Part shown: positions 22,592 through 45,530 of the stretch, in pieces
How the letters are laid out: every line of letters begins with the position of its first letter
Numbering within the stretch: position 1 is the first letter of the stretch
Assembly (NCBI GenBank): GCA_963674745.2
Contig: CAXXDV010000003.1
Location: 640,001-704,000 of the forward strand
From: Desulfosudaceae bacterium
Lineage (GTDB): Bacteria > Desulfobacterota > Desulfobacteria > Desulfobacterales > Desulfosudaceae
DNA length: 64,000 nt
Direction: 5' to 3'
Translations under genes and position numbers: made by a program
Notes under the pieces: model-generated
What the model was told of the DNA's origin: nothing
Seen by the model: the letters and a program-made list of their open reading frames with translations, nothing else
Databases searched by the model: none

Positions 22592-23233
22592 TTACAGCAG
22601 ATCGGTTCCGTCTCCCGGTACCGCGCGGATTCCCCGAAGGATAATTTTAATGGATTTGTCACTGATCCTCTTCAGGCTTTCGGTGGCAAACAGGGCTTGG
22701 CCGGCGCCTTTGGCCAGCATGATATTCCCTGTGGCAGCGCCCAGAAAGACGCCGGCCGCCTCCCAGGGGTCAATAGGGATGACAATGCCGGCCTCAATCG
22801 CCCGGCGGGCGACCTTTGCGGCTTCTTCCAGACAGGCTTGAGACAGTTTTGCCAGTTTCTGCTGAACTTCTGCCGAAGTGTTGGCAACCAGTTCGGGGGT
22901 GGCTTCGGAAAAAGCCATCTTGAAATACGATTCGTATTGTGACGAAAAGTCATAATAAACCTTGAAAAAGGCGACGATGGCCTCCTCAACCTCGAGTCGT
23001 TCATGGGGGATCTGCAGCAGCTTGTCCAGTAAAATGGCCGTGCCTTCTACGACCAGGTTGAGAAACAGATCATCCTTGTTGCGATAGTCCAGGTATATCG
23101 ACTTTTTGCTGTACCCGGCTTGGCGGGCGATCATTTCCATGGATGTTCCCCGGTAACCATATTTAAAAAACAGGTCACGCGCGGCATTGTAGATTTTTAT
23201 TTTTCTCGCCTGAGGATCCCTTTTTTCAGCCAT
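22592..23233 (-). CDS. TetR/AcrR family transcriptional regulator
   Basis: ARDLFFKYGYRGTSMEMIARQAGYSKKSIYLDYRNKDDLF; likely start ATG 23233. Confidence 0.92.
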   Translation of the reverse strand: MAEKRDPQARKIKIYNAARDLFFKYGYRGTSMEMIARQAGYSKKSIYLDYRNKDDLFLNLVVEGTAILLDKLLQIPHERLEVEEAIVAFFKVYYDFSSQYESYFKMAFSEATPELVANTSAEVQQKLAKLSQACLEEAAKVARRAIEAGIVIPIDPWEAAGVFLGAATGNIMLAKGAGQALFATESLKRISDKSIKIILRGIRAVPGDGTDLL

Positions 23234-23342
23234 ATTTTTTCCGCCCGAATACCCCATGAAACAACGCTGGATGCCGTCGTCAAAGAAATGCGGACTCGAA
23301 TTGCGGCGCGCCGTCCAGGGCGTAATACGCCCCCATAACAAT

Positions 23343-24506
23343 CTATTCGAGTGTTTTAATGATATTTAAAAACCGGTCCACCCAAACCGGGTTTAAACCC
23401 TTGTTGCGTCTGGCAACCAGTTCCCTGATTGCCTGCGCAATGGCTTTCATATTAAAGGCACTTTTTTCGTGTATTAACGATTGATCAAATAAATCAGCAA
23501 TCCCTACCAGCTGGGCAAAGGGGTGCGGTTCTTTGGCGCGCATATTTTCAGGGTAACCGTCACCGTTCAAAAATCGGTGATGTTCATAAGCAACAATTGC
23601 CGGCAAGGGGGCTTCGGACGCATTTTTTAGCAGCCTTTGCGCACCTGAAAAGGGATGCGTCTCGACAAGCTGCGTCATTTCTTTTGTCGGCGATTGCTGT
23701 GATAATACATCCGAAGGAACGTCCAGCTTGCCCAGATCATGACTTAACGACGCTTTTATAATATCCAGCACATGCTCAGGCGGCATTTTCAGCTCAACGG
23801 CCATTCGGGCCGTGAGATAGGCAACGCGAAGCGAATGATGAAAACTGGCGGCGTCATAATTTTTGATGTCAACCAAGGGGGCAAACAAGGTGACAAACCG
23901 GTTCCAGTCATATATCAGATTCAGAAGCGCATTTGTTGTCTGTTTTTTTAAAATCCGGGCCTCTTTTTTTTCCTCAGATTCTTCTTCGTCAGGTTTTGGC
24001 TCACCATCCTCCTCAGCGTCAATGCCAAGAACGTCTGCAATATTTTCATTGTTGAATTTTTCTTCTTTGCTTGACGTTACAGATATTATTTCCCCGAGGC
24101 GAATATGCGTCGTCGATCTGGCCATTTTCTGATCGACAGGTTCACCGTTGGTGTCCAGACCGATGAGATAAAAAATGAACTGACGGAGTTCATCGGAAGT
24201 TACGCCTTTGTATATGCGAAGGACTTGAATACTAATTTTTTTCATGAATTCGCCCAACTTGTCAAAATGAACACCCGCTTTCCGCATGGAGCGACCATTG
24301 AAAATAATCTCTTTCTCAATGCCGATCAAAGAAATCGGATTTATTTGCGCAAAAACCTTTGAGGTTACGTTATCAAACTGTTTCAGTGACGTCAGTACCT
24401 GGGGATGATGAGGAGAATAGATCAGGCTGTTATGAAACACTGACATAAAAGCCGCCACAGTACCCTGAACAAGGTCTTCCAGCGTTTCTTGTTGATCAAT
24501 ACCCAT
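23343..24506 (-). CDS. HD-GYP domain protein
   Basis: HSLRVA, HDLGK, HP, EHH...NGDGYP, IADLFD. Confidence 0.88.
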   Translation of the reverse strand: MGIDQQETLEDLVQGTVAAFMSVFHNSLIYSPHHPQVLTSLKQFDNVTSKVFAQINPISLIGIEKEIIFNGRSMRKAGVHFDKLGEFMKKISIQVLRIYKGVTSDELRQFIFYLIGLDTNGEPVDQKMARSTTHIRLGEIISVTSSKEEKFNNENIADVLGIDAEEDGEPKPDEEESEEKKEARILKKQTTNALLNLIYDWNRFVTLFAPLVDIKNYDAASFHHSLRVAYLTARMAVELKMPPEHVLDIIKASLSHDLGKLDVPSDVLSQQSPTKEMTQLVETHPFSGAQRLLKNASEAPLPAIVAYEHHRFLNGDGYPENMRAKEPHPFAQLVGIADLFDQSLIHEKSAFNMKAIAQAIRELVARRNKGLNPVWVDRFLNIIKTLE

Positions 24507-24521
24507 TGTGTTTCCTTAGAA

Positions 24522-26654
24522 TTATTTTTTTGCCATGCGTTGACAGATTTTTACGATGTTATCATTCTTGCTATCCGCACCATAAATAAGGAATGCTTTC
24601 GTTTTTTTAGCTGGATATCCCTTTAAACTGCGAAAGATTTCTGTTTTGAGCGTTTCAAAGGCCTTGGCCCGGAAAAAATGACGAATTTTAACAAACTCCA
24701 GCAGAACATCAAGTACTTCCGGGTTGCCAACAGCGGACATGGCTCTTACGGCCTTAATTTTTCGTTCCAGATCGATTTTGCGCCAAAAGGGGCCGTCATT
24801 GCCAATGACGATATTCAACAGCGCGGCCAGGACGTCGGTGGAATCGTCTGCCATTGCAATATCTATGGTACCCATCGAGATGTCCCGGTCAGGACTTTCC
24901 AGATGTTCGACCAGAATCTGCGAGGAGTTCGGGGCATCCATTGTTACCAGGGTTTTTAGTGCGGCAAGTTTTATGGAAAGGTTATCGTTATTCAAAAGCC
25001 GGTTTATTTCTTTATTCAGTCCTTCATCGCCCAGATCAGGAACTATTTTGAGTAATTCTGTGATTTCGTCGGGTACTGCCCGGCGGAGTCTGCGTTTAAT
25101 ATCCAGGACATAATGCTTTTTGTTTAGCTTGATCAGCTTTATCAAAGCTTTTTGTTCATTCTTATCCTGGCTGCGTAAATAAGATTCAATAATCGCATCT
25201 GACGTAAATTCAGTGCTTAACTCTAAAAGTTTAATAAACGTTTTTACGGCGGGTTTGTCTCTGTCGCTGTATAGTGTGGTAAAAATCCCGGGAAGATCAA
25301 GCGGCAACAGCAGATGTTGGATAATCGTTTTCTTTTTTATGGTCTTCAATTCCGCTTCCGAATCGTTTTCTCCGGGTTCACGGTCTGAGGCAGGACTAAC
25401 ATGAAGACGTTTGATCTGTCTGAGAACTTCATTAAGCGCATAGTTCAATTCGTTCAAATTATCTTCCGGCTCAATGGATTTCAGTGTTTTAAGGAGCACG
25501 GCGCAATGATTTTGAACTTTATCAATAAACGTTTCCCGTCCCAGAAAATCAAGCAGCAACAGCATCATGTGCTTCCGGTTTTCCCTTGCCAGGGTATCCG
25601 TGTCCGGCAGCGTGGCCTTTTGTTCGGGCCGTGGGAATTTTTTTAATAATTCATCTATCTTGCTTCGCAACTGGGTCATCCGCAAAACCGGCTGGGGAAG
25701 GTTGTCGGAGAGAAGAACCTTGATATCACTTACTGCGACAACACTTTCGTTATTCGACTTGTTTTTTGTTGGCAGGACTTCCTGGCCCTCCTGGTCACTG
25801 CATACGGCGGATAAAACGTTAAGTAGTCGCAAAATATATGGGTGGAGATGATCTTCTCCACTATTGACGTCATTGATTACACTCAAAACATCCCTGGCCG
25901 GTGGTTGGGTGAACATTTCCTCGTCCATTAACGGTTTACGATCTTTTAGCTTAAGTGGTTTGGCCAGTAGTGCCGTTCTTAAGTCGGGCCGTACGTTCTC
26001 TACAAGAGCTTTAAAAACTTTCAAGGCGTCTAGATACTCCTGGGATTCTTCAGGCTCCCCCTCCCCGGCAGCTTCGGACCGCATCAGCTCCTGAAGATAA
26101 TCTGACCATGAAGATTCGCTTTCGGAACTTTTTTCCAGGAGTATTTCTTCGATATCCTCAAATTCAGCCGTGTTCCAGTTGAGAAAAACCGCTTCAATAT
26201 GGGGCAGGTCGGCGTTTTCTATGAGCTGGTTCAAATTTTCAAAAGAGGAATCCTCCTGGTCATTGCTGATGATTTCTGAGAATCTCTGGATCTCCTCAAT
26301 GGCGATGCCGGGTTTAAGTGTCAATGAATAGATTGAAAAGGCATGTAAATCCTCGGCAAGATCACCGAAAGCAGGATTTTTGGACGGCAGGTTCGTCCCG
26401 GAGAACATGAGACTGTCAGCGGAAACGCCAATCGTGATCGCGTCGTTTTCGGCAAAGTATGTGTCAAGTGTAATCTTGGTCTTTTCAAGTGTGCTTTTCA
26501 GTTGGGGGTGGCCACTCGGATACATACGAATATTTTTTCCGACTACGCTGATCTGCAATAAGACTTCGCCGACTTTCGCGAGCGTGTCGGCACCTACTCG
26601 CTTTCCTGTTGCAGGCTTATTTTCCTGAGAATCGGAACCGGATTTTTCGACCAT
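24522..26654 (-). CDS. HEAT-repeat domain protein
   Basis: N-terminal MYPSGHP domain, acidic linker, C-terminal HEAT-like helical repeats (IKLAALKTL, KAVRAMSAVGN). Confidence 0.72.
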   Translation of the reverse strand: MVEKSGSDSQENKPATGKRVGADTLAKVGEVLLQISVVGKNIRMYPSGHPQLKSTLEKTKITLDTYFAENDAITIGVSADSLMFSGTNLPSKNPAFGDLAEDLHAFSIYSLTLKPGIAIEEIQRFSEIISNDQEDSSFENLNQLIENADLPHIEAVFLNWNTAEFEDIEEILLEKSSESESSWSDYLQELMRSEAAGEGEPEESQEYLDALKVFKALVENVRPDLRTALLAKPLKLKDRKPLMDEEMFTQPPARDVLSVINDVNSGEDHLHPYILRLLNVLSAVCSDQEGQEVLPTKNKSNNESVVAVSDIKVLLSDNLPQPVLRMTQLRSKIDELLKKFPRPEQKATLPDTDTLARENRKHMMLLLLDFLGRETFIDKVQNHCAVLLKTLKSIEPEDNLNELNYALNEVLRQIKRLHVSPASDREPGENDSEAELKTIKKKTIIQHLLLPLDLPGIFTTLYSDRDKPAVKTFIKLLELSTEFTSDAIIESYLRSQDKNEQKALIKLIKLNKKHYVLDIKRRLRRAVPDEITELLKIVPDLGDEGLNKEINRLLNNDNLSIKLAALKTLVTMDAPNSSQILVEHLESPDRDISMGTIDIAMADDSTDVLAALLNIVIGNDGPFWRKIDLERKIKAVRAMSAVGNPEVLDVLLEFVKIRHFFRAKAFETLKTEIFRSLKGYPAKKTKAFLIYGADSKNDNIVKICQRMAKK

Positions 26655-26699: not shown

Positions 26700-29663
26700 T
26701 CAATGCCGGTGCTCCGTGCGTTCGATCAGTTCGATCTGCATGTTTCGGTTGAGTTTGACGAAGTAAGCATTATAGCCCGAGATCCGCACCAGCAGCCAGC
26801 GGTAATCATCCGGGTTTTCCATGGCGTCTTTCATCATGTCGGTGGTGACGACATTAAATTGCCACTGCATGCCGCCCATATCAAAATAACCGCTCAGATA
26901 GCTGGTAAACAGGTCCAGGGTGGCGGCGTGGGAATCGTTGCCGTGGGGCACGAGTTTTACGTTAAAGGCGATATTGTTGGGCATTTTCAAATGGTCCAGT
27001 CCGGCCACGGCGCGAAGGCCGGGCAGCAGCTGCTCGGAAGCACCCGGCGCCGGCGTCAGGCCCGGGGTAAAGGCCTTGCCTTTTTTCCGGCCCGAGGGCA
27101 GGGCTCCGGAAAGCATGCCGAACCCGACATGGTAGCTGATGGACCAGTAGCCGGGCACATATTTCCCGCCCCGGTAATTCTCCCGGGTGTTATAAACATC
27201 ATAGCTGTAATCGATCAGGTCCCGGGCAATGGCATTGGTTTCGGCGGTGTCCGAGCCGAATTTGGGAGCCTGCCGGATTTTTTCCAGCAGCATTTCATGG
27301 CCTTCAAAATCATGCGCCAGAGCGGTCATCAAGGTCGGGAAGTCAACGGCCTGTTCTTCATAAACCAGTTTTTTGATCACCATCAGGCTGTCAACCACAT
27401 CCGTGATGGAAACCAGGGCCACGCCCGAGGAGTTGTATACGGCACCGCCGTATATGAGGTCTTTGCCCTTTTCCATGGGGCCGGTAGTGAGCGATGATAA
27501 CAGCGGGGTGGGATGAATGTACTGATGGGCGTATCCCAGATAGTTGTTTATTTCGATGGACTTTTCCGCCAGGTACTGGAACTGGGTTTTGTAAGCGGCC
27601 ACAAAATCATCAAAGGCGGGAAAGGCGGTCCTGACATCTCCTGTTTCAGGTCCGATTTTTTCGCCCATGACCGGATGGATTCCGTTGTTCAAGGCCATCT
27701 CCAGGGGCGCCACCATGTTCAGCAGCATGCAGTTGGTGTGGCCGTAATGTTTTCCAGCGATGGTCGGTTCCACGCATCCGGTGGCGGCCCAGTCCCGGGC
27801 GTCTTCGATCCGGATGCCCTGGTTGACCAGGGACTCGATCATGGCTTTGTCGTTATGAATAATCGGAGAGGCCCCCATGTTGATGTTTACTTCGCACAGT
27901 CGTCTTAAATAGGCTTTGGAATTGACGCCGGGATAATAACGGGCGTTCATGTTCGGGTCTTGAAAACCCATCATCTCATTGGCTTTTAAGACGATATAGG
28001 TCATGTCGCAGACCGCGTTCTCGCCTTGGGCATCGACGCCGCCCACCGTTACGGTATCATCCGAGGAACTGCCACCGAACAGTTTGTTGCCCACGTCCGG
28101 CACAAAAGGGTCATGGTCGTTCAGGCGCAGAAAGAGGGATGCCACCAGTTCGATGGCTTCTTTAATCACCGCCTGTTTTTCAGCGTCGGTTGTTGCTTTT
28201 TCCATATCCCGGACAAACAGGGGCTGCAACAGTTGATCCAGCCGGCCGATGGACAGGGCCGAATCGGCGTTTTCAGCATGCAGGCAGACAAAACAGATCC
28301 ACACTGCCACAAGACCTTCGTAAACGGTTCGGGCGGGTTTGAGTGGGACCCGTTGGCAGATTTCGGCAATACGGGTTAATTCTTCGATTCGCCGGGCCTG
28401 CTCCGGTATATTTTTGTCCAGCGTGGAGATCTGGCTTAACGCTTCTTCCCGCAAATGCCGGGTATATTCCAAAATGCCGTCAACACAGAGTTGAATCGAC
28501 TTGTAAAAAGCCATAACGGCCGGATCATCACCCTGGTTTTCTTTTTCTTTTGCCTCAATCTTAATTCTTTCAAGCCCTTTTTCGATGACCAGCTTAAAGT
28601 CGGGTACGGTGTGGGAGATGGCATTGTTCTTCATCATAAAATAAAGCACGAACCGTTCTTCCAGTTGCTGTGAAACCGGGTTGTTGAATTTTTTTCGGCA
28701 ATATTCCCTGACATTGCGGTCCATCCAGAAAGGAAAAACATCGAAATTCAACGCTTCGGCATCTTCCGGACTGATATCGTTGGGGTTCAATCCCCGTTGA
28801 CCGATGCTTTTCAATTCCGGCCAGAGCAGGGTGCCGATCAGCTCCGGATAAATGGGCACACCGATTTCTTTGGTGGTGGTCGAACCCGGTATCAGGTGGC
28901 GGTCATGGATGATCGGTCGTTTATGGCTCAGTATGTAATGCATGGCCCGGGCCTGGCGGAGGTCCGGGTCTACGGGGTTGCCGTCAGCATCGTTCTCGAA
29001 TCCGTTTTGCCGGTGATACTCGGTCAAAAGCCGGGCCCGTTCGGCGCAGATGGCCGGTTTTAAGGCAAACCGCCTGTTTTTCAGATATTTCAAGCGGGGA
29101 AAATCATCGAGGGAAAAACGCCCCAGGTAAGGATCATCCAGAAACCGGACCTGGTCCACTTTTTCGGTCAGAATTTCGTTTTGATGTTTTCGTTTTTTCG
29201 GTTGTGTGTCGACATCTTCGACCGGGTAGAGCAGGCTGTTTTCCGGGCCGGTGTAGGTGGTTTTTTTGCCGGGTTTAACCAGCGTGCCCAGGTAGGAGAA
29301 CTTGGTCAGGTAGGCGATGTTGCCGGTATACGACATTTCATTGGTCAGCAGGTAGTCAAGAGACTCTTCAGGGCTTTTGCTGTATATCCTGGCCAGGGTC
29401 TCCTTGTTTTTATAAAAAATGGTCACATCGGGATTGTCGATGGTGCCGAACCCGGATTTCATTTTACCGTCGGCGAACACGACAAAGACATTGACCGTGT
29501 TGTCCCGGGTTTTGAACTGGTAACGGGCATTAAAAATAAAGCCGGTGTCCGGGTTGTTGATCTCTTTACGAATGTTGCCGCTGATTTTAAACAGCAGCCC
29601 CAGCAGTTTTAAAGAGATTAAAAACAGGTAAATGGACACATCGGTTTTAATTTTTCTAATCAT
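26700..29663 (-). CDS. Glycyl radical enzyme (eliminase/PFL2-like) with N-terminal SCP2-like domain
   Basis: Gly loop LLVRISGYNAYF; Cys loop ATGCVEP; GRLDQ, PKFG, ALPSGRK, QFNVV. The N-terminal ~130 aa have an SCP2-like pattern (YQFKT...VVFADGKMK..G....PDVTIFY...SYTGN). Confidence 0.9.
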   Translation of the reverse strand: MIRKIKTDVSIYLFLISLKLLGLLFKISGNIRKEINNPDTGFIFNARYQFKTRDNTVNVFVVFADGKMKSGFGTIDNPDVTIFYKNKETLARIYSKSPEESLDYLLTNEMSYTGNIAYLTKFSYLGTLVKPGKKTTYTGPENSLLYPVEDVDTQPKKRKHQNEILTEKVDQVRFLDDPYLGRFSLDDFPRLKYLKNRRFALKPAICAERARLLTEYHRQNGFENDADGNPVDPDLRQARAMHYILSHKRPIIHDRHLIPGSTTTKEIGVPIYPELIGTLLWPELKSIGQRGLNPNDISPEDAEALNFDVFPFWMDRNVREYCRKKFNNPVSQQLEERFVLYFMMKNNAISHTVPDFKLVIEKGLERIKIEAKEKENQGDDPAVMAFYKSIQLCVDGILEYTRHLREEALSQISTLDKNIPEQARRIEELTRIAEICQRVPLKPARTVYEGLVAVWICFVCLHAENADSALSIGRLDQLLQPLFVRDMEKATTDAEKQAVIKEAIELVASLFLRLNDHDPFVPDVGNKLFGGSSSDDTVTVGGVDAQGENAVCDMTYIVLKANEMMGFQDPNMNARYYPGVNSKAYLRRLCEVNINMGASPIIHNDKAMIESLVNQGIRIEDARDWAATGCVEPTIAGKHYGHTNCMLLNMVAPLEMALNNGIHPVMGEKIGPETGDVRTAFPAFDDFVAAYKTQFQYLAEKSIEINNYLGYAHQYIHPTPLLSSLTTGPMEKGKDLIYGGAVYNSSGVALVSITDVVDSLMVIKKLVYEEQAVDFPTLMTALAHDFEGHEMLLEKIRQAPKFGSDTAETNAIARDLIDYSYDVYNTRENYRGGKYVPGYWSISYHVGFGMLSGALPSGRKKGKAFTPGLTPAPGASEQLLPGLRAVAGLDHLKMPNNIAFNVKLVPHGNDSHAATLDLFTSYLSGYFDMGGMQWQFNVVTTDMMKDAMENPDDYRWLLVRISGYNAYFVKLNRNMQIELIERTEHRH

Positions 29664-31464
29664 TGAAACACTCCGGTGCCATCTCCCAGCAGATCGGCGC
29701 GTTATCCGTCAAACGCTCGGCCAGACCCGTTGTCCGGGGCAGTTCATAGTTGAAATAATATTTAAAGGCATACAGCTTTCCTTCGTAAAACAGGGCATCT
29801 TTACCGGTTGTTTTTTCTTCCAGCAGTTGTGTGGCCGAAACCGCCTGCTTGAGCCACTGCCAGGACACGACGATAATCCCGAAATACTCAAGATAGACCG
29901 TGGCATCGGAAAGATAGACCTCCGGCCCTTTTTCCTGAGCCACCCCGATTAAATGCATGGTCACTTCCTGTAATCTGTTCAGCGCCTTTTTCAGTTTTTT
30001 TCCGTATGGGGCAAGCGTGTCAAACTCCTGGGCCAGGGATATTGTTTTGTGGGCCTCCTCAAAGAAGAACAGCGAAGCTTTGCCGTCTTTCATGACGACT
30101 TTTCGACCCAGCAGGTCCATGCCCTGCATACCGGTGGTGCCTTCGTGGATGGGGTGAATGCGGACGTCCCGGTAATACTGCTCCAGGGGAAAGTCATCAC
30201 AATAGCCATAACCGCCGAAACACTGCAAACCGGTGCTGACGGATAAAACACCCATTTCCGAAGGAAAGGTCTTGGCCACCGGGGTCAGGATCTCCAGCAG
30301 CAGGCTGTATCGCTCTTTGTCTTCCGGGTTTTTTGAGACCAGCTGTAAATCATAATACAGGGAGCATTGCAGCAAAAGCGCCAGCGACCCTTCCACGATG
30401 GCGCGCTGAAACAGCAGCATCCGCCTGACGTCGGCATGCTCGATAATAGGGATTTGAGGCAGGTCGGGGTTTTTTTCCATCAGCCGCCTGCCCTGGGGCC
30501 TGGCCCTGGCGTAATCAAGAGCGGCATAATAGGCCGCGGTGGCGATACCGGCCGCGCCCATGCCTACTTCGAGCCGGGCCTCGTTCATCATCTGAAACAT
30601 GTACTTGAGCCCCTTGTGGGGTTCACCCACCAGGTATCCATGGCAGTCGTCTGATTCTCCGATACTCAGTTCCGTCAGCGGCGTGCCCTTATAGCCCAGT
30701 TTATGATAAACCTGTGTTACCTTGATGTCGTTGGGCGCCAGCTGACCATTCGGGTTGACTCTTTTTTTGGGAACCACGAACAGGGAAATGCCCTTGATGC
30801 CGGCCGGCGCGCCCTCGATTCTGGCCAGCATTAAATGCACCACGTTTTCAGCGCCGTTGTGGTCCCCGGCGGAGATAAAGATTTTCTGGCCCCGGATCAG
30901 GTAATGCCCCCCGTCCGTGGGACAGGCGGTGGTGGTGATGTCCGTAAGGGAGCTGCCGGCCTGGGGTTCGGTCATGGCCATGGTGCCCTGCCACTTGCCG
31001 GAAATCATGTTTTCGACAAAGGTATTATTCAGTTCCTCGCTCGCAAACGAGATGATCAGATGGGCGGCGCCGGTGGTCAGGTCGGCGTAAACACTGGCCG
31101 AATAGTTGGCCGCGGCAAAGATAAACCGGGCCACGTTGGAGAGAAGCAGCGGGAACTGGTCTCCGCCGTGATCGGTTGAAAAACTGGCGGCGATCCAGCC
31201 ACCCTCGCCGCATTCACGCATAATGTCTTTGACCCGTTTGTGAACGATCACTTCACCGTCAACCAGCTCCGGTGGCTCTGTGTCCATTTCCTTTAAAATG
31301 GGGAGCATCATGTTTTTAGCCAGTTTTATGGCCGCGTCGACAACCATGTCGAAAACCTGACGATTATGCATGCTGTAAAAATCGTATGAGGTAAGCTGCT
31401 CGACATCAAACACTTCGTACAACAGAAAATCCAGATTCCTTTTACTGATAAACTTTCCGGCCAT
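29656..31464 (-). CDS. Acyl-CoA dehydrogenase (long, ~600 aa class)
   Basis: GTMAMTEPQAGS, GQKIFIS, GIKGISLFVVPK, HKLG, MFQMMNEARL, QCFGGYGY, IHEGTTGMQ. Confidence 0.95.
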   Translation of the reverse strand: MAGKFISKRNLDFLLYEVFDVEQLTSYDFYSMHNRQVFDMVVDAAIKLAKNMMLPILKEMDTEPPELVDGEVIVHKRVKDIMRECGEGGWIAASFSTDHGGDQFPLLLSNVARFIFAAANYSASVYADLTTGAAHLIISFASEELNNTFVENMISGKWQGTMAMTEPQAGSSLTDITTTACPTDGGHYLIRGQKIFISAGDHNGAENVVHLMLARIEGAPAGIKGISLFVVPKKRVNPNGQLAPNDIKVTQVYHKLGYKGTPLTELSIGESDDCHGYLVGEPHKGLKYMFQMMNEARLEVGMGAAGIATAAYYAALDYARARPQGRRLMEKNPDLPQIPIIEHADVRRMLLFQRAIVEGSLALLLQCSLYYDLQLVSKNPEDKERYSLLLEILTPVAKTFPSEMGVLSVSTGLQCFGGYGYCDDFPLEQYYRDVRIHPIHEGTTGMQGMDLLGRKVVMKDGKASLFFFEEAHKTISLAQEFDTLAPYGKKLKKALNRLQEVTMHLIGVAQEKGPEVYLSDATVYLEYFGIIVVSWQWLKQAVSATQLLEEKTTGKDALFYEGKLYAFKYYFNYELPRTTGLAERLTDNAPICWEMAPECFND

Positions 31465-31488
31465 GTTTATTCCCTTATTCCAAAATGA

Positions 31489-32250
31489 TTATGTCTGTTG
31501 CGCCCCAATTCTTAGCCCCGCTATCATGAAGGCCTGGTTGCGGTTCTCCAGGTGAAGGGCCTGTTCCATTGAACTCACATCCAGGTTCTGATTGATCGCT
31601 TCTTTGGTCATGCGTAATCCCAGCGGGTTTTTTCCCACCATTTTACCCGCGATTTCATAAGCCGTATCCAGCAGCGCTTCTTTTTCCACCATTCGGCTGG
31701 CAAACCCCAGGGACATGGCCTCTTCGGCGGTCATGAACTCTCCGGTCAGCAGAAACTCGTTGGCCCGCCCCGAACCGATCAGTTTGGGCAGGAAATAACT
31801 GCTGGCCAGGTCCGCGCCGCCCAGGCCGATGTTGATATAGGCCGCGTTGAAACGGGCCTGAGGGGTAATGATTCGCACATCCGCGGCCATGGCAAAGCTG
31901 AATCCCGCGCCCGAGGCGGCGCCGTGAACGGCGGCAATAACAGGCTGAGGAATGCGTCTCATTTTGTAAAACAACCAGGAGGCCATGCTCTGGAATTTAT
32001 AAATCAGTTCCGGTGTGGCTTCAAATAATTTGGCAGCGGATTCTTTCATGTCCATTCCGGAGCAAAACCCTTTTTCACCGCTGCCGGTGATGATCAATAC
32101 CCGCACATTGTCATTATTCCGAAGATCGTCAAGCAGGGCATCCAGCTCTTCCACCATTTGCTGGTTCAGGGCATTGATGGTTTTGGGGCGGTTTAGTGTC
32201 AGCAGGCCGATATGGTCTTTTTCCGTAAACAGAATTGATTGATCCGTCAT
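31489..32250 (-). CDS. Enoyl-CoA hydratase/isomerase family protein
   Basis: LTLNRPKTINAL, FCSGMD, IAAVHGAASGAG, ADVRI. Confidence 0.93.
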   Translation of the reverse strand: MTDQSILFTEKDHIGLLTLNRPKTINALNQQMVEELDALLDDLRNNDNVRVLIITGSGEKGFCSGMDMKESAAKLFEATPELIYKFQSMASWLFYKMRRIPQPVIAAVHGAASGAGFSFAMAADVRIITPQARFNAAYINIGLGGADLASSYFLPKLIGSGRANEFLLTGEFMTAEEAMSLGFASRMVEKEALLDTAYEIAGKMVGKNPLGLRMTKEAINQNLDVSSMEQALHLENRNQAFMIAGLRIGAQQT

Positions 32251-33003: not shown

Positions 33004-33837
33004 GTGGTGCGGGTTAATATCATTTGTTTTTCCCAGACCGGTAATACACGGAAAGTCGCGCGGGACATGGCCGGTGTCTTCAAGCAGGATGGACATGACG
33101 TCGGTTATATCTCATTCAGAAAGGCCGGTTACCGGCATTTCACGGAAGCCGATCTCATCGGGGTCGGCGCACCCTGTTTCGAAAGCCAGGCACCGGAACC
33201 GGTCAGAACGTTTTTAAAGCCCCTGCCTCATCTGGAGGGGAAAAAAGCGTTTGTGTTCGCTACTTCCGGAGGCGGCCCCGGCCGGGTATTATATGATCTG
33301 GCCAGGCCCCTTATGGATGCCGGGGCTGATGTGATCGGCGGATTTCTTTGTCGGGGCACCTGCTACTATCCGGTACCCTGCCTGGTCAACCGTTTTCCCG
33401 ATCGGCCGGACCAGGCGGACCTGGCGGACGCCCGGTTTTTCGCCCGGTCGGTTTTGGAACATGTGACTTCCGGGCGGGCGGGGCCATTGCCGGAAACCCG
33501 GCCGGATGCCTTGAAGCATGGATTCGGGTTTTATCATATGCTGGCCGTTTTGTTAAAAGATCCGCTGATTCGAGCCGTCATGCCGGAACCCGTCCTTGAT
33601 CCGGAAAAGTGCGATGAATGCCGGTGGTGCTTTCACGCCTGCCCCACCGGCAGTATTGTGCTAAGCCCTTTACCGCAAATAGGTTCGACCTGCATCAGAT
33701 GCTATCGCTGCATGAATGGCTGCCGACCACAGGCCCTGTCTGTAAAATGGGGCATTTCCAATTTTTTGACATGGACGCTTTACAACAAAACGTTTGAGCG
33801 CTGGCTGGGGGATATTCAGCCCGGTGAAAAGATTTAG
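33004..33837 (+). CDS. EFR1-family flavodoxin + 2x[4Fe-4S] ferredoxin fusion
   Basis: FSQTGNT flavodoxin loop; CDECRWCFHACP and CIRCYRCMNGCR. Confidence 0.9.
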   Translation: MVRVNIICFSQTGNTRKVARDMAGVFKQDGHDVGYISFRKAGYRHFTEADLIGVGAPCFESQAPEPVRTFLKPLPHLEGKKAFVFATSGGGPGRVLYDLARPLMDAGADVIGGFLCRGTCYYPVPCLVNRFPDRPDQADLADARFFARSVLEHVTSGRAGPLPETRPDALKHGFGFYHMLAVLLKDPLIRAVMPEPVLDPEKCDECRWCFHACPTGSIVLSPLPQIGSTCIRCYRCMNGCRPQALSVKWGISNFLTWTLYNKTFERWLGDIQPGEKI

Positions 33838-36713: not shown

Positions 36714-37343
36714 TTACATCCAGCCAAGAATATTGACGAATACAATCCACAAAACGATATCTGCCGTCAGGAGGCTGAAAAACAGGGTGGCTTTGCCTTT
36801 TAATCCCAGGTTGTCATAAACCCAGACGACCAGAAAAAAAGGCGCGGTATAGGCAAGCAAAATAAATTCAATATGGGGCCAGGACCAGTATTTATATTCC
36901 CAGACAAGAATACCGAAATAGTTCAGCGCCACCTCGACCAGGATACAGAATATCCCCATGGCAACGGGAATAAAAATCCGGTTGGGGACGCCCAGGATGG
37001 TGATGTTTTTATCCATGGACAGGAGCTTGGCAAAAATAATGCCGGCCGTGCAGAACATCAGGCTGATTTCGATATTGACGCCGATCAGGATGACAAAGGC
37101 CGAGCTTTTCGGTGTCATCCACAAACCGGCGTAATTGGTAAAATGCAGAACAAGTCCATTGATAAATTCCGGCAGAAAAACGGCCACCGAAAATATCAGG
37201 CCCAGCAGGACGTTGTCCCAGGCTTTTCTTTCGATCTCAACCGTGTAAACATATAATAAAAATGGAATATAAAGAATAATGTAGGGCTGAAAATGGTCCG
37301 GGCTTCTGAGTATGCTCAGTGTCTGCAGGGTCGCTTCGGTCAT
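36714..37343 (-). CDS. Integral membrane protein of unknown function
   Basis: About 6 TM segments with intramembrane Glu residues (EFIN, NIEI, VEV); AGGAG SD. Confidence 0.75.
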   Translation of the reverse strand: MTEATLQTLSILRSPDHFQPYIILYIPFLLYVYTVEIERKAWDNVLLGLIFSVAVFLPEFINGLVLHFTNYAGLWMTPKSSAFVILIGVNIEISLMFCTAGIIFAKLLSMDKNITILGVPNRIFIPVAMGIFCILVEVALNYFGILVWEYKYWSWPHIEFILLAYTAPFFLVVWVYDNLGLKGKATLFFSLLTADIVLWIVFVNILGWM

Positions 37344-38259: not shown

Positions 38260-39057
38260 TCAGGCACCCGAGAATTTGGGTTTGCGTTTCTGAAGATAGG
38301 CTTCGACACCTTCTTTAAAATCTTCGGAAAGCAGGGTCAACACAAACTGATCGACATCCATATGCGTGGTTGATTTGTCCAGGGCGTTGGCGACGGCGTT
38401 TACGGTCTGCTTGGTCATCGCGGCCGACACAGGCGGCAGGCAAAGGACTTTATCCGCGATTGCCCGGGCTTCATCCATGGTTTTGTTGTCAGGGCAGACC
38501 CTTTGGGCAAACCCCCAGTCATAAGCGTCTTTGGCGTAAACCTTATCACCGAACAGAACAATTTCCTTGGTCCTGGGCGGGCCAACCAGATGAACCAGCC
38601 GGGGGATCGTGGCCCAGCTCATGTTCATGGCCAGCCCGATTTCCGGAACCCGCATAAAGGCCGATTCCGCCATGACACGGAAGTCGCAGGCGCAGGCCAG
38701 GGAAACACCGCCGCCCACGCAGAAGCCTTCTATGGCGCATATGGTTATCTGATCCAGTTCTTCCCACATCCGGCACATCCTGGGGCCATATGCCATTAAT
38801 TTGCGTTTTTCAGCCAGGGTGGCGGTAAGCACTTGCGCCAGAGCAGGGTCGGCAAGATCGACGCCGGCACTGAAGCAACCGCCCGCGCCGGTTAAAATGA
38901 TCGCAGACACATCGGAACGCTTTTGAAAGCTTGCGGCCACGTCACAGAGTTTGTCCAGTACGTCCACGGACATGGCATTTTTTTGCCCGGGCCGGTTGAT
39001 GGTCACAATCGCCAGGGCGCCGTCATGGGTTGTGGTAATGACATTTTCATGAGTCAT
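38260..39057 (-). CDS. Enoyl-CoA hydratase/isomerase family protein
   Basis: INRPGQKNAM, FSAGVDL, AIEGFCVGGG, ACDFR, VPEI, EDFKEGV. Confidence 0.93.
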   Translation of the reverse strand: MTHENVITTTHDGALAIVTINRPGQKNAMSVDVLDKLCDVAASFQKRSDVSAIILTGAGGCFSAGVDLADPALAQVLTATLAEKRKLMAYGPRMCRMWEELDQITICAIEGFCVGGGVSLACACDFRVMAESAFMRVPEIGLAMNMSWATIPRLVHLVGPPRTKEIVLFGDKVYAKDAYDWGFAQRVCPDNKTMDEARAIADKVLCLPPVSAAMTKQTVNAVANALDKSTTHMDVDQFVLTLLSEDFKEGVEAYLQKRKPKFSGA

Positions 39058-39952: not shown

Positions 39953-40723
39953 TCATGATCTCCTTTTTTTCCTTATCGCGGTTCTTATGGTGTCACAAAT
40001 CGGTTTGTCATCGCAGGCGCTGCAATCCAGGTCCGAACAACTGATGGTGCCGTCCGCTTCGAGTCTGAGCCGGGTGTGTTCCCCCCGGATGGCCGCCGCC
40101 CGTTTATGGATATCATCAATGGCGCTGATGACCTCCGGTATTTCCGCCACAATGATCACTTTGACATCTTTTATGTCGGGAAAAGCGTCCCTGTATGCAA
40201 AGATCAGGCACTGACCCAGAGCGGCCAGGGTGAACCCTTTTTTCATCAGGTCGTGGCTGATTCTGATCCAGAGCTTTCCGGGAATACTCCGGGTCATAAA
40301 ACCCGGAATTTTATTCGAGAGGTTTTTTGCGTTGTTAAAATCCGGCGACAGCGGATCAATATCCGGGCCCGGGTTGGTGATGACGGTTACGGCTATCGAT
40401 GCCGGCCCTTTTCCCATATCAGCCAATTCCGTTCCCAGTGTATAAACGGCATCCCGGCCGATATCCGATTCGCAGGTCCACAGAACGGCACTTGACGAAA
40501 TATGTGAGGGGGATCCGATTTCAAGAGCGGTATCACTTTCCGGGACGATAAAGGCGGTTTTCTTTCCGGATTTTTTTGAAACAAAACCAAGCCGTCCGGC
40601 TTCTTTGCCGTTATCAAAGGCGTAAGTCCTGAACGCGTTTTCATTTAGCATGTTCTCGATCAGATGGATCAGCGGCAGGTGGTCGCATACCGGCTGGTCT
40701 GTCCCGTTGCCCGTGTCAGTCAT
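39953..40723 (-). CDS. Stand-alone CdhC/AcsB (acetyl-CoA synthase) middle-domain-like protein with C-terminal 4-Cys motif
   Basis: LEIGSP, G.E/D, GFM...LWIRIS...KKGFTL..LG pattern as in ACS domain 2; ends CSDLDCSACDDKPIC; lacks the full A-cluster domain. Confidence 0.7.
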   Translation of the reverse strand: MTDTGNGTDQPVCDHLPLIHLIENMLNENAFRTYAFDNGKEAGRLGFVSKKSGKKTAFIVPESDTALEIGSPSHISSSAVLWTCESDIGRDAVYTLGTELADMGKGPASIAVTVITNPGPDIDPLSPDFNNAKNLSNKIPGFMTRSIPGKLWIRISHDLMKKGFTLAALGQCLIFAYRDAFPDIKDVKVIIVAEIPEVISAIDDIHKRAAAIRGEHTRLRLEADGTISCSDLDCSACDDKPICDTIRTAIRKKRRS

Positions 40724-41535
40724 TGGCGTTGCCTTTTGGGGGAAATGAAATTACCTCCGGCAATAACAGCGGCGCCGTAGGCCGCCATAAGTTGCGGATC
40801 AATATCCGAGTGTTTGACGGTTAGATTGGCCATTTTCTTCAACCGGGCCGTAAAAGCCGGCACCTTGGCCAGACCGCCTGACAGAATAATGTCGCTGTCG
40901 GTATCCGCACTGCTGAACATGGATGTCGTTTTGGAGGCGATGGAATCAATCACGCCGGCGATGACATCGTTTTTGTTTTTGCCGGCATTGACCTGGCTGA
41001 TGACACTGCTTTCGGCAAATACGGCGCAATTGCCGGCAATCATGAATTGCTCGGTGGCCTGTTCCGCGTAAGCTGAAATTTTTTCAAACGGAATCTGGAT
41101 GGCTTCGGCGACCATTTCCAGAAACTTACCGCTTCCGGCGGCACATCTTTCATTAACATAGTCCTGCTCGGCAAAGCCGCTATCGTCAATGGTAACGACT
41201 TTAATAAAAAAACCGCCGACATCAATAATGGTTCGGGCATTATTGTCAATCGAAAAGGCCCCGCGCGCAAGGCAGACGGGCTCGCTTAACCGGTAAGTCG
41301 CCTTGTTTACCAGCCTGGCACCGTATCCGGTTGCAACGGACTTTTTTACGGACCGGTTCCGTATTTTTTTCCCCCGGGCCGTGGCCGCCAGATCAAGCGC
41401 CTCGCGAAACGCGTGCCGGTACAATCTGTCAAACCGCCGGTCCATTTCGCGGCAGGCGTATCCGAGGAGCCTGGCATCTTCAACAAGGCAGATTTTCAGG
41501 AACCGTGTTCCGACGTCTATTCCGGCCGTTATCAT
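40720..41535 (-). CDS. ASKHA ATP-dependent [4Fe-4S] activase (HgdC/BcrAD-like), divergent copy
   Basis: GIDVGT, ATGYG, IDVGG, NERCAAGSGKFLE, CAVFAES, SGGLAK. Confidence 0.88.
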   Translation of the reverse strand: MITAGIDVGTRFLKICLVEDARLLGYACREMDRRFDRLYRHAFREALDLAATARGKKIRNRSVKKSVATGYGARLVNKATYRLSEPVCLARGAFSIDNNARTIIDVGGFFIKVVTIDDSGFAEQDYVNERCAAGSGKFLEMVAEAIQIPFEKISAYAEQATEQFMIAGNCAVFAESSVISQVNAGKNKNDVIAGVIDSIASKTTSMFSSADTDSDIILSGGLAKVPAFTARLKKMANLTVKHSDIDPQLMAAYGAAVIAGGNFISPKRQRQ

Positions 41536-42323
41536 GTTAAGCCTTTCATGGCGAAAACAGCCGCCCCCAGCGCCCCGGTTATTTGGGGGTCGATGTTCAG
41601 CCGGGTAAATTTCAGGCTCAGGTGCTTTTCAAGCTGCCGCACAACCCCCTGATTTTTTGATACGCCCCCGGTCAGACAGACATTTTTTTGAATTTCAATC
41701 ACCGTGGAAAGATCTGCGACCCTTTTGGCCACAGCATCAGAAAGCCCGGCGGCGATGTGTTTTAATTTCTTTTTTTCGTAAAGGGCTTCTAAAATTTCAA
41801 GTTCCATGAATATGCTGCATTTATTGGTAATATTTAATGGTTTGCGTGATTTTAACGTCAAGGGGCCTAAATCCTCAAGTTTTACCCCGATTGTTCTGGC
41901 CAGTATCTCCAGGGAGCGACCGGTGCCGGCCGCGCATTTATCGTTCATGGCGAAGTTTTTGATCAACCCCTTTTCATCGATTGAAATCACTTTGCAATCC
42001 TGGCCGCCGATATCGATGATCGTTCGAATGCTGTTATCGGCATAAAAAGCACCCATGCCATGGCAGGATATCTCGCTTAAATTCATATCCGCAAAAGGAA
42101 TACCGGTTCTTCCATATCCGGTACTGCAGCAGCGGGTAATATTGTCAAACGTCAGGCCGCTTGAGGAGAGTACCCGCTGCATGACGCAGGTCGCGGATTC
42201 TAAAACCGTCGGCTTTACCCTGATAATATCCGTGGCCAGGATCGATTGACCGTCCATGATCACGGCTTTTGCCGTAAGTGAACCCACATCACAACCGGCA
42301 AATATCTCTGTTTTCTGAATCAT
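41532..42323 (-). CDS. ASKHA ATP-dependent [4Fe-4S] activase (HgdC/BcrAD-like)
   Basis: GCDVGSLTAK, STGYGR, EISCHG, DIGGQDCK, MNDKCAAGTG, CSIF, TGGVSKN, GALGAA. Confidence 0.92.
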   Translation of the reverse strand: MIQKTEIFAGCDVGSLTAKAVIMDGQSILATDIIRVKPTVLESATCVMQRVLSSSGLTFDNITRCCSTGYGRTGIPFADMNLSEISCHGMGAFYADNSIRTIIDIGGQDCKVISIDEKGLIKNFAMNDKCAAGTGRSLEILARTIGVKLEDLGPLTLKSRKPLNITNKCSIFMELEILEALYEKKKLKHIAAGLSDAVAKRVADLSTVIEIQKNVCLTGGVSKNQGVVRQLEKHLSLKFTRLNIDPQITGALGAAVFAMKGLT

Positions 42324-42324
42324 T

Positions 42325-42741
42325 TTATCCGATAAAATGGTTAACCGTCACGTTATCCCTGGTCAGCTGGAGAAAGCGGAAAAACAGTAGTGCCCATAAG
42401 AAATCTCCGAAAAGGGTTGAAAATGCCAGAAAGGTGGCCTGGCCGATGATAAAACACCAGGTAAATATCGCGAAAAGAATCAGTTTTGCGATGATTCCCA
42501 GCCAGATCACGACCCTGTTTTTCGTCAGGTCTGCGGCAACCGAGCAGTATCCGACACCGAAAATCACTACTGCCAGCATAAAAACCTTAAAAAACAGAAC
42601 CTGGTAAAAATTACCAGTCAGTGCCTGATCCCCCAGCAACAGCTTTGTCGCAAGAGTACCGAACGCCAGACCGAATACGCCCAATCCGATATTCCACAGC
42701 CCGCCCACAAAGAAAGCCTTCTTATAAAAATGGTAATTCAT
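42325..42741 (-). CDS. Small 4-TM membrane protein of unknown function
   Basis: Four hydrophobic segments; paralog of 33970-34356. Confidence 0.75.
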   Translation of the reverse strand: MNYHFYKKAFFVGGLWNIGLGVFGLAFGTLATKLLLGDQALTGNFYQVLFFKVFMLAVVIFGVGYCSVAADLTKNRVVIWLGIIAKLILFAIFTWCFIIGQATFLAFSTLFGDFLWALLFFRFLQLTRDNVTVNHFIG

Positions 42742-42797
42742 TTTTTTGCCTCATATTTATACGATTTTAAAAGCTTTTATTCGATATGATGGATGCC

Positions 42798-42867
42798 ATG
42801 ACAACAGGTCATTTTTTTTGCACCCGTAGAATTTTACTTGACACGGAATCTACCATTTGTCAATAAT
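42798..42867. promoter_or_regulatory. Divergent promoter region with TGAC-N5-GTCA operator
   Basis: ATGACAACAGGTCAT (42798-42812); TTGACA on + (42838-42843) and on - (42863-42858). Confidence 0.55.
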
Positions 42868-42947
42868 CAAAGCGTAGAACATTTAAGGTCGCCCCTTAAG
42901 AAATATTATGCTTTTTTATTCTTTAACGCTACGGTAGAGGTGCAGGT

Positions 42948-44132
42948 CTGTCAATCTTAGATGAAATAAAAAAAATCGCGGCAACAGATTACCATTCCCT
43001 CCTGGTGGATGAAAAAAAATCAGGCAGGAAAATTATCGGCTATTTTTGTTCTTATTTTCCGGAAGAAATCGTCCATGCGGCCGGTTTTGTGCCGTACAGG
43101 ATGAGAGCCGTCGGCAGTACCGGAACGACAAAAGGCGATATCTATTTTTCTTCGCTTAATTGCACATTTGTCAAACGGTGTTTTGATAAAGCCCTCCATG
43201 GTGACTTTGATTTTTTAGACGGGGTCGTCTTTTTGAACGGCTGTGACCATACCCGAAGAATGTATGACAACTGGCGGCATGCCGGGATTGATCCCGATTT
43301 TCGTTACATGTTTGTTGTGCCCCATAAGACCGGCAGGCTGGCGGAAAAAAGGTTTACGGCCGAGATGGAAACATTCAAGGCCGCCCTTGAAAAAGCCTTC
43401 AGCATCACCATATCTGAAGATTCGATCCGGGCCTCTATCCGTCTTTACAATCAGAAAAGATGTCTGCTGTCTGAATTGTACCGGCGACGGTATGAAAAAA
43501 AGGTCCCCATCAACGGCAGTGAAATCCTGAGTGTCATGCTTGCCATAACCGCCATACCGGTTGAACAGGCGATTGATCTCCTGGACAAGGTCCTGGCTGA
43601 AATATCCGGCAGGGATGTGGGCGCGGAAAACAAAATCAGGGTGTTTGTCAGCTCCGGGTGTATGGAAGAGGTTGACCATCTGCAGCTTATTGAAGAATGC
43701 GGTGGGATCGTGGTCGCTGATAACCTGTGTCTGGGGGCCCGTCATTTTGACGGTATGGTGGATGAAACGGCACCCGTATTTGAGGCCCTTTCCCGTCGAT
43801 ATCTTAACCACTTGTCCTGCCCGCGGATGGTCAATGATTTTGCCGGCCGGAACGCATTTCTGAAAAAGACGATTCAAGAATCAGGAGCCGAAGCTATCAT
43901 CGCCGAAAAACTGAAGTTTTGTGATATCTGGGGGGGCGAGCTGTATCTGATGCGGCAGGAAGCAGGAAAAAGCCATCTCCCCATACTCGCCCTTGAACGT
44001 GAGCTTTACGGCGGCGGCGAAGGACAGATCAGAACCAGGGTGCAGGCCTTTTTTGAACAGGTCAGAAACCGGGCGGTGGTTGATGCCGGTCTGCTGCCGA
44101 CTGCGGGCAGGGATTACCAGGCCAAACTGTGA
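42948..44132 (+). CDS. 2-hydroxyacyl-CoA dehydratase / class I benzoyl-CoA reductase subunit (HgdB/BcrC-like)
   Basis: IGYFCSYFPEEIVHAAG, LNCTF, GCDHTRR, DNLCLG, SCPR, KFCD, GQIRTRVQAF; start is CTG 42948 or GTG 43005. Confidence 0.9.
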   Translation: MSILDEIKKIAATDYHSLLVDEKKSGRKIIGYFCSYFPEEIVHAAGFVPYRMRAVGSTGTTKGDIYFSSLNCTFVKRCFDKALHGDFDFLDGVVFLNGCDHTRRMYDNWRHAGIDPDFRYMFVVPHKTGRLAEKRFTAEMETFKAALEKAFSITISEDSIRASIRLYNQKRCLLSELYRRRYEKKVPINGSEILSVMLAITAIPVEQAIDLLDKVLAEISGRDVGAENKIRVFVSSGCMEEVDHLQLIEECGGIVVADNLCLGARHFDGMVDETAPVFEALSRRYLNHLSCPRMVNDFAGRNAFLKKTIQESGAEAIIAEKLKFCDIWGGELYLMRQEAGKSHLPILALERELYGGGEGQIRTRVQAFFEQVRNRAVVDAGLLPTAGRDYQAKL

Positions 44133-44158
44133 ACGAATGCATAAAGTATGGATGAAAA

Positions 44159-45511: not shown

Positions 45512-45530
45512 CTTAAATTGCAGGTCACCA

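Follow-up and report, generated by a model that had tools for sequence, protein, structure and literature searches.

A widespread family of glycyl radical enzymes with a predicted SCP2-fold carrier domain may convert hydroxylated lipids to aldehydes without oxygen

Positions 26,700-32,250 of a 64-kb window of Desulfosudaceae bacterium contig CAXXDV010000003.1, from an organism of the sulfate-reducer type (the window being the whole stretch of DNA analyzed, whose positions serve as coordinates throughout), encode, on the minus strand, an oxygen-sensitive glycyl radical enzyme (GRE) whose N terminus is predicted to adopt an SCP2 fold, together with an acyl-CoA dehydrogenase (ACAD) and a crotonase-like protein. 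We favor, with moderate confidence, the interpretation that this GRE, served by its SCP2 carrier, would turn a hydroxylated lipid (a greasy alcohol or an ether) into an aldehyde without oxygen, and that the aldehyde would then be oxidized and activated as a coenzyme A (CoA) ester. A preliminary description of this DNA had proposed a radical eliminase for a lipophilic substrate; our analysis supports that interpretation in part, and the frequent adjacency of genes for aldehyde:ferredoxin oxidoreductase (AOR) in related loci, as well as the co-traveling crotonase-like gene, also back it. The substrate class, the delivery of substrate by the SCP2 domain, and any link to beta-oxidation proper are inferred.

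The GRE translation matched PFL-like (PF02901) at residues 192-849 (E 1.5e-159) and Gly_radical (PF01228) at residues 865-969 (E 2e-19). The glycyl radical motif R960-I-S-G963 is read within LLVRISGYNAYF, and the Cys loop GCVEP (residues 629-633) within ATGCVEPT; the residues of both motifs are invariant in 19 full-length homologs from bacteria and Asgard archaea, which are 62%-87% identical to the window protein. Translation and Pfam thus agree with the preliminary description, which had reported a 987-aa GRE with intact RISG and GCVEP motifs at this position. From its barrel, Gly_radical domain, and catalytic Cys, the protein belongs to the PFL-like GRE superfamily, and its radical machinery (Gly963, Cys630, Glu632, and His351) is intact at the level of sequence.

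The same description had placed an extra domain of ~130 aa, resembling SCP2, in front of this core. Same-length homologs cover residues 1-200 at 47%-86% identity, and the extra N-terminal part is thus genuine and translated. We modeled the N-domain with AF2 from an alignment of 40 N-terminal fragments, namely the in-frame references from related loci. The model reached a pLDDT of 84-97 over residues 1-130 and 39-57 over residues 131-172, a stretch within the linker to the GRE core; four linker residues (L165, D170, V172, and L175) are invariant in the 19 homologs. Compared with the PDB by Foldseek, this model had 32 matches at E<=1e-3. The UbiJ SCP2 domain (6h6p; E 4.5e-6, TMt 0.71) came first, with the SCP2-like C-terminal domains of alkylsulfatases, human SCP2/MFE-2 SCP-2L, and A. 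fulgidus AF1534 among the other leading matches. A VIA search, which is independent of Foldseek and covered 48,161 chains, gave Z 11.9 to human SCP2 (8af2; rmsd 2.7 A over 111 aligned residues), and its ten best rows were SCP2-fold chains without exception. An N-domain profile found nothing meaningful among PDB sequences (best E 0.65); it was fold comparison alone that revealed SCP2. On these models, the assignment of residues 1-130 to the SCP2 fold is solid, and the fold check suggested by the preliminary description comes out in its favor.

Known SCP2 and SCP2-like domains (8af2, 1ikt of MFE-2 SCP-2L, 6h6p of UbiJ, and 2cfu of the alkylsulfatase SdsA1) share the alpha/beta fold of the GRE N-domain, with best values of Z 11.9 and TMt 0.71; in each, the domain is the carrier of a hydrophobic ligand and works for a catalytic partner or next to one. 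Unlike them, the GRE N-domain is just 8%-19% identical in sequence to its structural counterparts, scores below the Pfam threshold, and is fused to a GRE, an arrangement that we did not find in print; literature searches that paired glycyl radical enzymes with SCP2 (sterol carrier protein) or with ether lipids brought up no relevant report. A profile of the N-domain matched 386 clusters among 1.84 billion representatives at E<=1e-3 (172 at E<=1e-10). In a Pfam scan of 34 of these relatives, two exceed the SCP2 cut-off (P0163 at 26.2 bits and P0140 at 21.7 bits), and 14 of the 16 that are at least 370 aa long carry PFL-like. Where it is fused, the N-domain is nearly always fused to a GRE. Neither of two stand-alone SCP2-like ORFs (G000 C1:696860-697231 and G027 C88) has a GRE, activase, or AOR gene within ~10 kb. 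Within the domain, the first helix (residues 8-26; 29586-29642) has a strongly hydrophobic sequence in the bacterial proteins (SIYLFLISLKLLGLLF) and an amphipathic, charged one in the Asgard proteins (EIENFKEQLNLLAMIF), possibly reflecting a difference in membrane association.

With residues 1-200 as query, 126 of 636 candidates matched at E<=1e-3, and the length of these proteins is almost always ~987 aa. Carriers include Desulfatibacillum, other Thermodesulfobacteriota/Desulfobacterota, Syntrophomonas, Bacteriovoracaceae, Anaerolineales, and many Asgard lineages; one of them, Desulfatibacillum alkenivorans DSM 16219 (L025), is in culture. Among genomes of relatives, 15 of 41 (own genome included) and 9 of the 12 within the own family hold the N-domain, often in two to four copies and nearly always in frames of ~1000 aa. 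Sequence comparison thus shows the SCP2-GREs to be a distinct, highly conserved, and widespread uncharacterized family. In a maximum-likelihood tree of 34 GRE cores, with two own-genome paralogs as a long-branched outgroup, all 19 Asgard rows fall on one side of a branch (support 99/97); this clade lies within a 100/99 group that also holds four Desulfobacterota rows, and the window protein is found among deeper bacterial branches. Under this long-branched root, the Asgard clade sits inside the diversity of bacteria, a placement that hints at a direction of transfer but does not prove it.

To place the catalytic core, we compared it with characterized GREs. Among solved structures, it is closest to A. 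fulgidus PFL2 (2f3o; E 1.8e-108), followed by glycerol dehydratase (1r8w; E 1.4e-107). No curated NCBIfam cut-off of a characterized GRE is reached by the window protein. Its scores for TIGR01774, the PFL2/glycerol dehydratase subfamily (520.4 bits against a cut-off of 678.2), CutC (392 against 1050), HypD (388 against 1100), and HpsG (361 against 1000) set it outside known small-substrate families, and HpfG scores 339 against 1000. The preliminary description had named membership in such a family as grounds for its own refutation, and on these scores it is not refuted. In an alignment to 1r8w, with positions counted by hand, C630 and E632 correspond to C433 and E435 of glycerol dehydratase, and H351 to H164. 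Elsewhere in the pocket, three changes are invariant in the family: S282 of glycerol dehydratase becomes A469, D447 becomes N644, and the loop GGYPMYQN becomes GGSSSDDT. S282 and D447 presumably have roles of their own in glycerol dehydratase. All three SCP2-GREs of the own genome (G000, with contigs C1-C3) keep GGSSSD(D/Q), GCVEPTxxGxHxGHT, and SH(T/S). The window GRE is accordingly classed, by sequence, as a CXE (1,2-eliminase/dehydratase) type that retains the Cys/Glu/His set of diol dehydratases and has other pocket positions changed.

Two solved dehydratases, glycerol dehydratase (C. butyricum; 1r8w/1r9d) and 1,2-propanediol dehydratase (5i2a), share with the window GRE the ten-stranded barrel, the Gly-radical domain, the GCVEP loop, the catalytic Cys and Glu, and the equivalent of His164. 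In glycerol dehydratase, Glu435 deprotonates the C1 hydroxyl and His164 protonates the leaving C2 hydroxyl, as set out in a review (PMC13450708). The window GRE probably follows the same course of radical dehydration, with an aldehyde as product. The dehydratase chains (787 and 843 aa) lack an SCP2 domain, unlike the window GRE, and the partners of the SCP2-GRE family (AOR, crotonase, ACAD, and TetR) differ from those of glycerol and propanediol dehydratases. These differences bear on whether the enzyme could be an ordinary small-diol or glycerol dehydratase whose SCP2 domain serves in membrane tethering, regulation, or oligomerization instead of delivery. Its closest characterized relatives are indeed such enzymes, with an identical Cys/Glu/His set, and the hydrophobic first helix of bacterial members might simply be a membrane anchor. 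Yet the TIGR01774 score falls below the cut-off, the pocket changes are invariant in the family, the co-traveling genes encode CoA-ester enzymes and TetR regulators, and scans of the window and of related loci revealed no microcompartment or 1,3-propanediol genes near the GRE. We therefore regard a small-diol substrate as unlikely.

A. fulgidus PFL2/PflD (2f3o) resembles the window GRE in its CVE loop and in having Ala at the position of S282 in glycerol dehydratase; it differs in its length (776 aa), in lacking a fused SCP2 domain, in reading GCVEIAP, and in having Asp, not Asn, at the position of D447. According to the 2026 review, the function of A. fulgidus PflD is debated between glycerol dehydratase and alkylsuccinate synthase, and archaeal PFL-like GREs still have no assigned function (PMC13450708). 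Hermodarchaeota GREs that are 33%-38% identical to PflD have been labeled Ass/Bss (PMC8163825). This label raises the alternative that the window GRE is an X-succinate synthase, similar to alkyl- or benzylsuccinate synthase, that adds a hydrocarbon to fumarate. MasD and BssA do belong to the same GRE superfamily and likewise have lipophilic substrates, the host genome is of the alkane-degrader type with several GREs, and an SCP2 domain could in principle carry an alkane. However, the same genome encodes a true MasD, or (1-methylalkyl)succinate synthase (C3:114514-117012; 1259 bits to PDB 9o8u); an activase homolog lies ~3 kb upstream of it. Its Cys loop reads ACMSP and lacks the Glu, whereas the window GRE keeps both CVE and the diol dehydratase His and scores only 212.8 bits against MasD (9o8u) and 196.1 bits against BSS. 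In addition, no genes for small beta or gamma subunits were recognized beside the window GRE, and AOR as a family neighbor suits an aldehyde rather than a succinate adduct. Succinate synthase activity is thus very improbable. Because the true MasD of the same genome has a Glu-less loop, the Ass/Bss label does not fit the SCP2-GRE family, of which the five Hermodarchaeota genes of that report may or may not be members. The presence of MasD makes the organism a likely anaerobic alkane degrader. Two further reports, a limonene GRE paper (PMC12583861) and an Asgard microcompartment preprint (PMC12747264), proved to be unrelated to the SCP2-GRE family.

GRE decarboxylases also exist, and the window protein has weak matches of 264 bits to indoleacetate decarboxylase and 188 bits to 4-hydroxyphenylacetate decarboxylase. 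Such values fall well short of the cut-offs of 1100-1150 and stay below the eliminase scores, no small-subunit gene was recognized, and a decarboxylase of fatty or aryl-alkanoic acids would leave the AOR neighbor unexplained; we give this possibility hardly any credence.

To examine gene neighborhoods, we scanned one genome per species for family loci, which yielded 221 pattern matches, 72 of them confirmed, in 70 loci. Neighboring ORFs from all loci (849 in total) were clustered, and cluster representatives were scanned. Partners were counted within 5 kb of the GRE in the 56 loci that have a GRE ORF of at least 900 aa (39 archaeal and 17 bacterial, window included); the other 14 of the 70 loci have no full-length GRE ORF and were excluded, and contig ends make all counts lower bounds. 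A GRE activase passing TIGR02494 is present in 36/56 loci (30/39 archaeal and 6/17 bacterial), and an AOR (AFOR_N/AFOR_C) in 23/56 (18/39 archaeal and 5/17 bacterial). A crotonase of the window type occurs in 11 of the 56 (four archaeal and seven bacterial), a long ACAD in two, both bacterial, and an acyl-CoA ligase in two, one archaeal and one bacterial. The adjacency of AOR suggests that the product of the GRE is an aldehyde.

This survey led to several observations on the partners. First, the crotonase-like gene travels with the GRE: orthologs are 80% identical in L010 and L015 and 41%-46% identical in seven further bacterial and Asgard loci, and the best own-genome paralog reaches 34%. Where canonical crotonases of the own genome read GGGxE and xxE, the GRE-linked ones read GAGFS and AAY(I/F) and have an inserted GGAD; across the GRE-linked set, the two Glu columns hold Ser, Ala, or Gly and Tyr, Phe, or Ser. 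The canonical catalytic glutamates are Glu144 and Glu164 in rat ECH. The window protein meets no NCBIfam cut-off (best PRK08258, 193 against 330). On this comparison, the crotonase-like gene belongs to a non-canonical subfamily that lacks both canonical glutamates. Second, ACAD orthologs in L044 and L069 are 62% identical and stand in the same crotonase-ACAD-GRE order, and the best own-genome paralog is 40% identical. In the window, the GRE start (29663) overlaps the ACAD stop by 8 nt, and ORF coordinates place the crotonase-like gene upstream, both as the preliminary description had it; the overlap predicts translational coupling of ACAD and GRE. A GGAG stands ~8 nt 5' of the GRE ATG. Third, a CrtI/carotenoid-isomerase-family flavin adenine dinucleotide (FAD) enzyme (522 aa) occurs in 19/70 loci, archaeal without exception and mostly just 5' of the GRE. 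It is usually paired with a PaaE-like FAD/NAD/2Fe-2S reductase (409 aa), and three loci have a second pair. The pair stands beside the GRE-activase-AOR set in, for example, L011, L013, L019, L030, and L037. As a lead, and not as evidence, it points to isoprenoid-type chains.

Coupling of the GRE to ACAD, and co-inheritance of the crotonase subfamily, raise the question of whether the substrate is itself a CoA thioester, such as a hydroxy-acyl-CoA, held on the SCP2 domain while the GRE performs a radical dehydration or isomerization together with ACAD and the odd crotonase. SCP2 domains, including those of peroxisomal enzymes, bind acyl-CoAs, and retention of CXE by GRE isomerases would accommodate such a reaction. 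Against it, AOR near the GRE in 23/56 loci and a ligase in 2/56 suggest a free aldehyde and a free acid before CoA activation, and the GRE class list in PMC13450708 includes no enzyme acting on a CoA ester. A thioester substrate seems to us improbable, if slightly less so than a small diol.

The rest of the own genome (5.55 Mb in three contigs, with ~10 GREs) supplies candidates for functions that the window lacks. Two further SCP2-GRE paralogs, 45% identical, are encoded at C3:604081-607170 (1029 aa) and C1:2193849-2196797 (982 aa). Pfam assigned no family to their N termini, which are homologous to the window N-domain by BLASTP (E 6.6e-10 and 8.8e-5) and by profile search. The C1 paralog (L087, C1:2184000-2203999) is part of a TetR-GRE-activase-3beta-HSD/epimerase-SDR string; the C3 paralog (L088, C3:595000-614999) lies beside an MFS transporter gene, and a PUFA/PKS-like megasynthase gene (AT-ACPx3-KR-DH) ends 4.5 kb away from it. 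As the window holds no activase gene, its GRE would have to be activated in trans. Of four stand-alone activase homologs in the genome, the one beside the C1 paralog (C1:2192916-2193815) is the best match to the family activase (E 2e-92; TIGR02494 280.9 against 174.35 bits) and, by this similarity, the likeliest candidate. An AOR ortholog, 77% identical to a GRE-adjacent AOR, is encoded at C3:1631152-1633023, and an ortholog of the GRE-adjacent acyl-CoA ligase (64% identical) elsewhere in the genome. Three kb from the intact AOR gene, a 105-aa ORF (C3:1627558-1627875) matches solely the C-terminal end of AOR (71%-80% identity) and may be a gene remnant. A single 1109-aa frame at C1:1680962-1684291, with an activase match at approximately residues 25-240 followed by a PFL-like GRE, looks like an activase-GRE fusion.

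We suggest the following mechanism. The SCP2 domain, on its tether of ~45 residues, would hold the hydrophobic tail of a hydroxylated lipid. Examples are long-chain vicinal diols and lipids whose glycerol-type head group bears a leaving group, beta-hydroxy or beta-alkoxy. The Gly963 radical would generate a thiyl radical at Cys630, which would abstract hydrogen from the carbinol carbon; Glu632 would deprotonate the hydroxyl, and His351 would protonate the leaving beta oxygen group. The aldehyde would be released and oxidized by the AOR encoded elsewhere in the genome, and the acid would become a CoA ester through the ligase before passing to the co-transcribed ACAD and crotonase-like enzyme.

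Several points weigh against this proposal. Catalysis by family members is a prediction from sequences and models. Pfam SCP2 (PF02036) scores the window protein at 13.5-14.3 bits, below its cut-off of 21.3. The hand-over of substrate from SCP2 domain to barrel is purely inferred, and the SCP2 ligand could be a thioester instead of a free lipid. The CXE motif, by which the preliminary description recognized a 1,2-eliminase, defines GRE 1,2-eliminases and is kept by GRE isomerases too, according to the motif discussion in PMC13450708; the retained Glu and the His164 equivalent are in keeping with elimination, which the motif alone does not prove. Pfam and NCBIfam scans of window ORFs found neither an activase nor an AOR in the 64 kb, and across the family there is no adjacent activase in 20/56 loci and no adjacent AOR in 33/56. 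The operon also lacks genes for 3-hydroxyacyl-CoA dehydrogenase and thiolase. It had been called a beta-oxidation operon, which holds for the presence of a crotonase-like gene and an ACAD but is overstated given the two missing glutamates and the two missing enzymes; that the GRE feeds beta-oxidation is thus a conjecture.

A more specific and speculative version of the proposal is that the family represents the anaerobic pathway so far missing for the cleavage of glycerol ether lipids, which we consider improbable as it stands. Its targets would be bacterial alkylglycerols and plasmalogen remnants, and archaeol-type lipids in Asgard archaea. With the alkyl chain held by the SCP2 domain, the GRE would dehydrate the glycerol head to a 3-alkoxypropanal or, alternatively, directly expel an alkoxide beta to the carbinol radical. 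AOR would oxidize the aldehyde, and the ligase would make the CoA ester. The Glu-less crotonase would then carry out a retro-oxa-Michael elimination to a fatty alcohol and acryloyl-CoA, and the ACAD-type enzyme would handle the acryloyl-CoA. Such a route would account for every recurrent neighbor and also for the missing hydroxyacyl-CoA dehydrogenase and thiolase in the conserved set.

The features of the locus are collected in Table 1. The genes from the crotonase-like protein to the TetR regulator form a tight minus-strand string in the order crotonase-like, ACAD, GRE, HEAT, HD, and TetR. Downstream of the GRE, the junctions measure 45 nt and 15 nt, and the last is listed as an overlap. Between 22000 and 33200, promoter and terminator scanning found 17 and 20 sites, respectively, where 11.7+/-3.6 and 14.4+/-3.8 were expected, and the GRE-HEAT gap contains no convincing site. 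The three downstream genes (22592..26654) are probably co-transcribed with the GRE, judging from this arrangement. HEAT and HD proteins were ruled out as family partners, with 0 homologs in 70 related loci. Among the downstream genes, only TetR-type regulators recur, flanking the GRE in L018, L032, L051, and L052 and at an own-genome paralog.

Table 1. Features of the SCP2-GRE locus and nearby genes (window coordinates)
Feature	Position	Strand	Evidence
Crotonase-like protein, 253 aa	31489..32250	-	Pfam ECH_1 (PF00378), E 6e-50
Long ACAD, 602 aa	29656..31464	-	Pfam Acyl-CoA_dh_N/M/1 and Acyl-CoA_dh_C (four domains)
GRE, 987 aa	26700..29663	-	Pfam PFL-like and Gly_radical
Predicted SCP2-fold domain, GRE residues 1-130	29274..29663	-	AF2 model and fold comparison
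Linker, GRE residues 131-175 (~45 residues)	29139..29273	-	Low pLDDT when the domain is modeled alone
GRE catalytic core, residues 176-987 and stop	26700..29138	-	Pfam PFL-like, Gly_radical
Cys loop G629-C630-V-E632-P633 (CXE motif)	27765..27779	-	Aligns with glycerol dehydratase C433/E435
Glycyl radical motif R960-I-S-G963	26775..26786	-	In translation, within Pfam Gly_radical match
HEAT-repeat protein, 710 aa	24522..26654	-	Pfam HEAT_2
HD-domain protein, 387 aa	23343..24506	-	Pfam HD/HD_5
TetR regulator, 249 aa	22592..23341	-	Pfam TetR_N
EFR1-type flavodoxin/ferredoxin fusion	33004..33837	+	NCBIfam ferrodoxin_EFR1, 82.3 bits (cut-off 75); Pfam Flavodoxin_3 and Fer4
Polytopic membrane protein, 209 aa, AF_1327-like	36714..37343	-	Language-model feature search, 0.95 to AF_1327-family clusters

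Two nearby genes offer leads. The EFR1-type fusion, on the opposite strand near the operon, could supply reductant to a GRE activase. The 209-aa membrane protein, which had no match in Pfam or NCBIfam scans, is 79% identical to the product of the gene immediately 3' of the SCP2-GRE in L045 and 34% identical to that of the gene after AOR in L009; as a lead, this similarity may link it to the GRE system. Farther along the window, 39953-46934 holds a cluster encoding two BcrAD/BadFG-type ATPases, a CdhC-like protein, a MinD/CbiA-type ATPase, two HGD-D subunits (2-hydroxyacyl-CoA dehydratase/benzoyl-CoA reductase-like), and a GMC oxidoreductase; it adjoins a second crotonase gene at 38260-39057. 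At the other end, the window encodes a full-length bacterial serpin (880-2085, plus strand; Pfam Serpin, E 3e-121), a 970-aa fusion of an N6 DNA methylase with a type I specificity protein (Methylase_S; 5830-8742, minus strand), and, after this fusion, a Schlafen/AlbA_2-HATPase_c_4 protein (9690-11060).

What is new here is, first, a bacterial SCP2-GRE predicted to be translationally coupled to a dedicated ACAD and accompanied by a Glu-less crotonase and, second, the presence of three SCP2-GRE paralogs and a true MasD in one genome, where activation of the window GRE would have to occur in trans. The characterized GRE eliminases covered in PMC13450708 all act on small polar molecules. If our proposal is true, glycyl radical chemistry would reach membrane-type or hydrocarbon-derived lipids through a clade that has its own lipid carrier built in. 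The family bears on the long-debated function of archaeal PFL-like GREs and on the claim of alkane activation by Ass/Bss-like enzymes in Asgard archaea, a claim that our comparisons leave unsupported for SCP2-GREs. Bacterial members, including that of the cultured D. alkenivorans, make the question experimentally tractable. Should the proposal hold, anoxic sediments would gain a route for the degradation of hydroxylated and ether lipids, which aerobes attack with O2.

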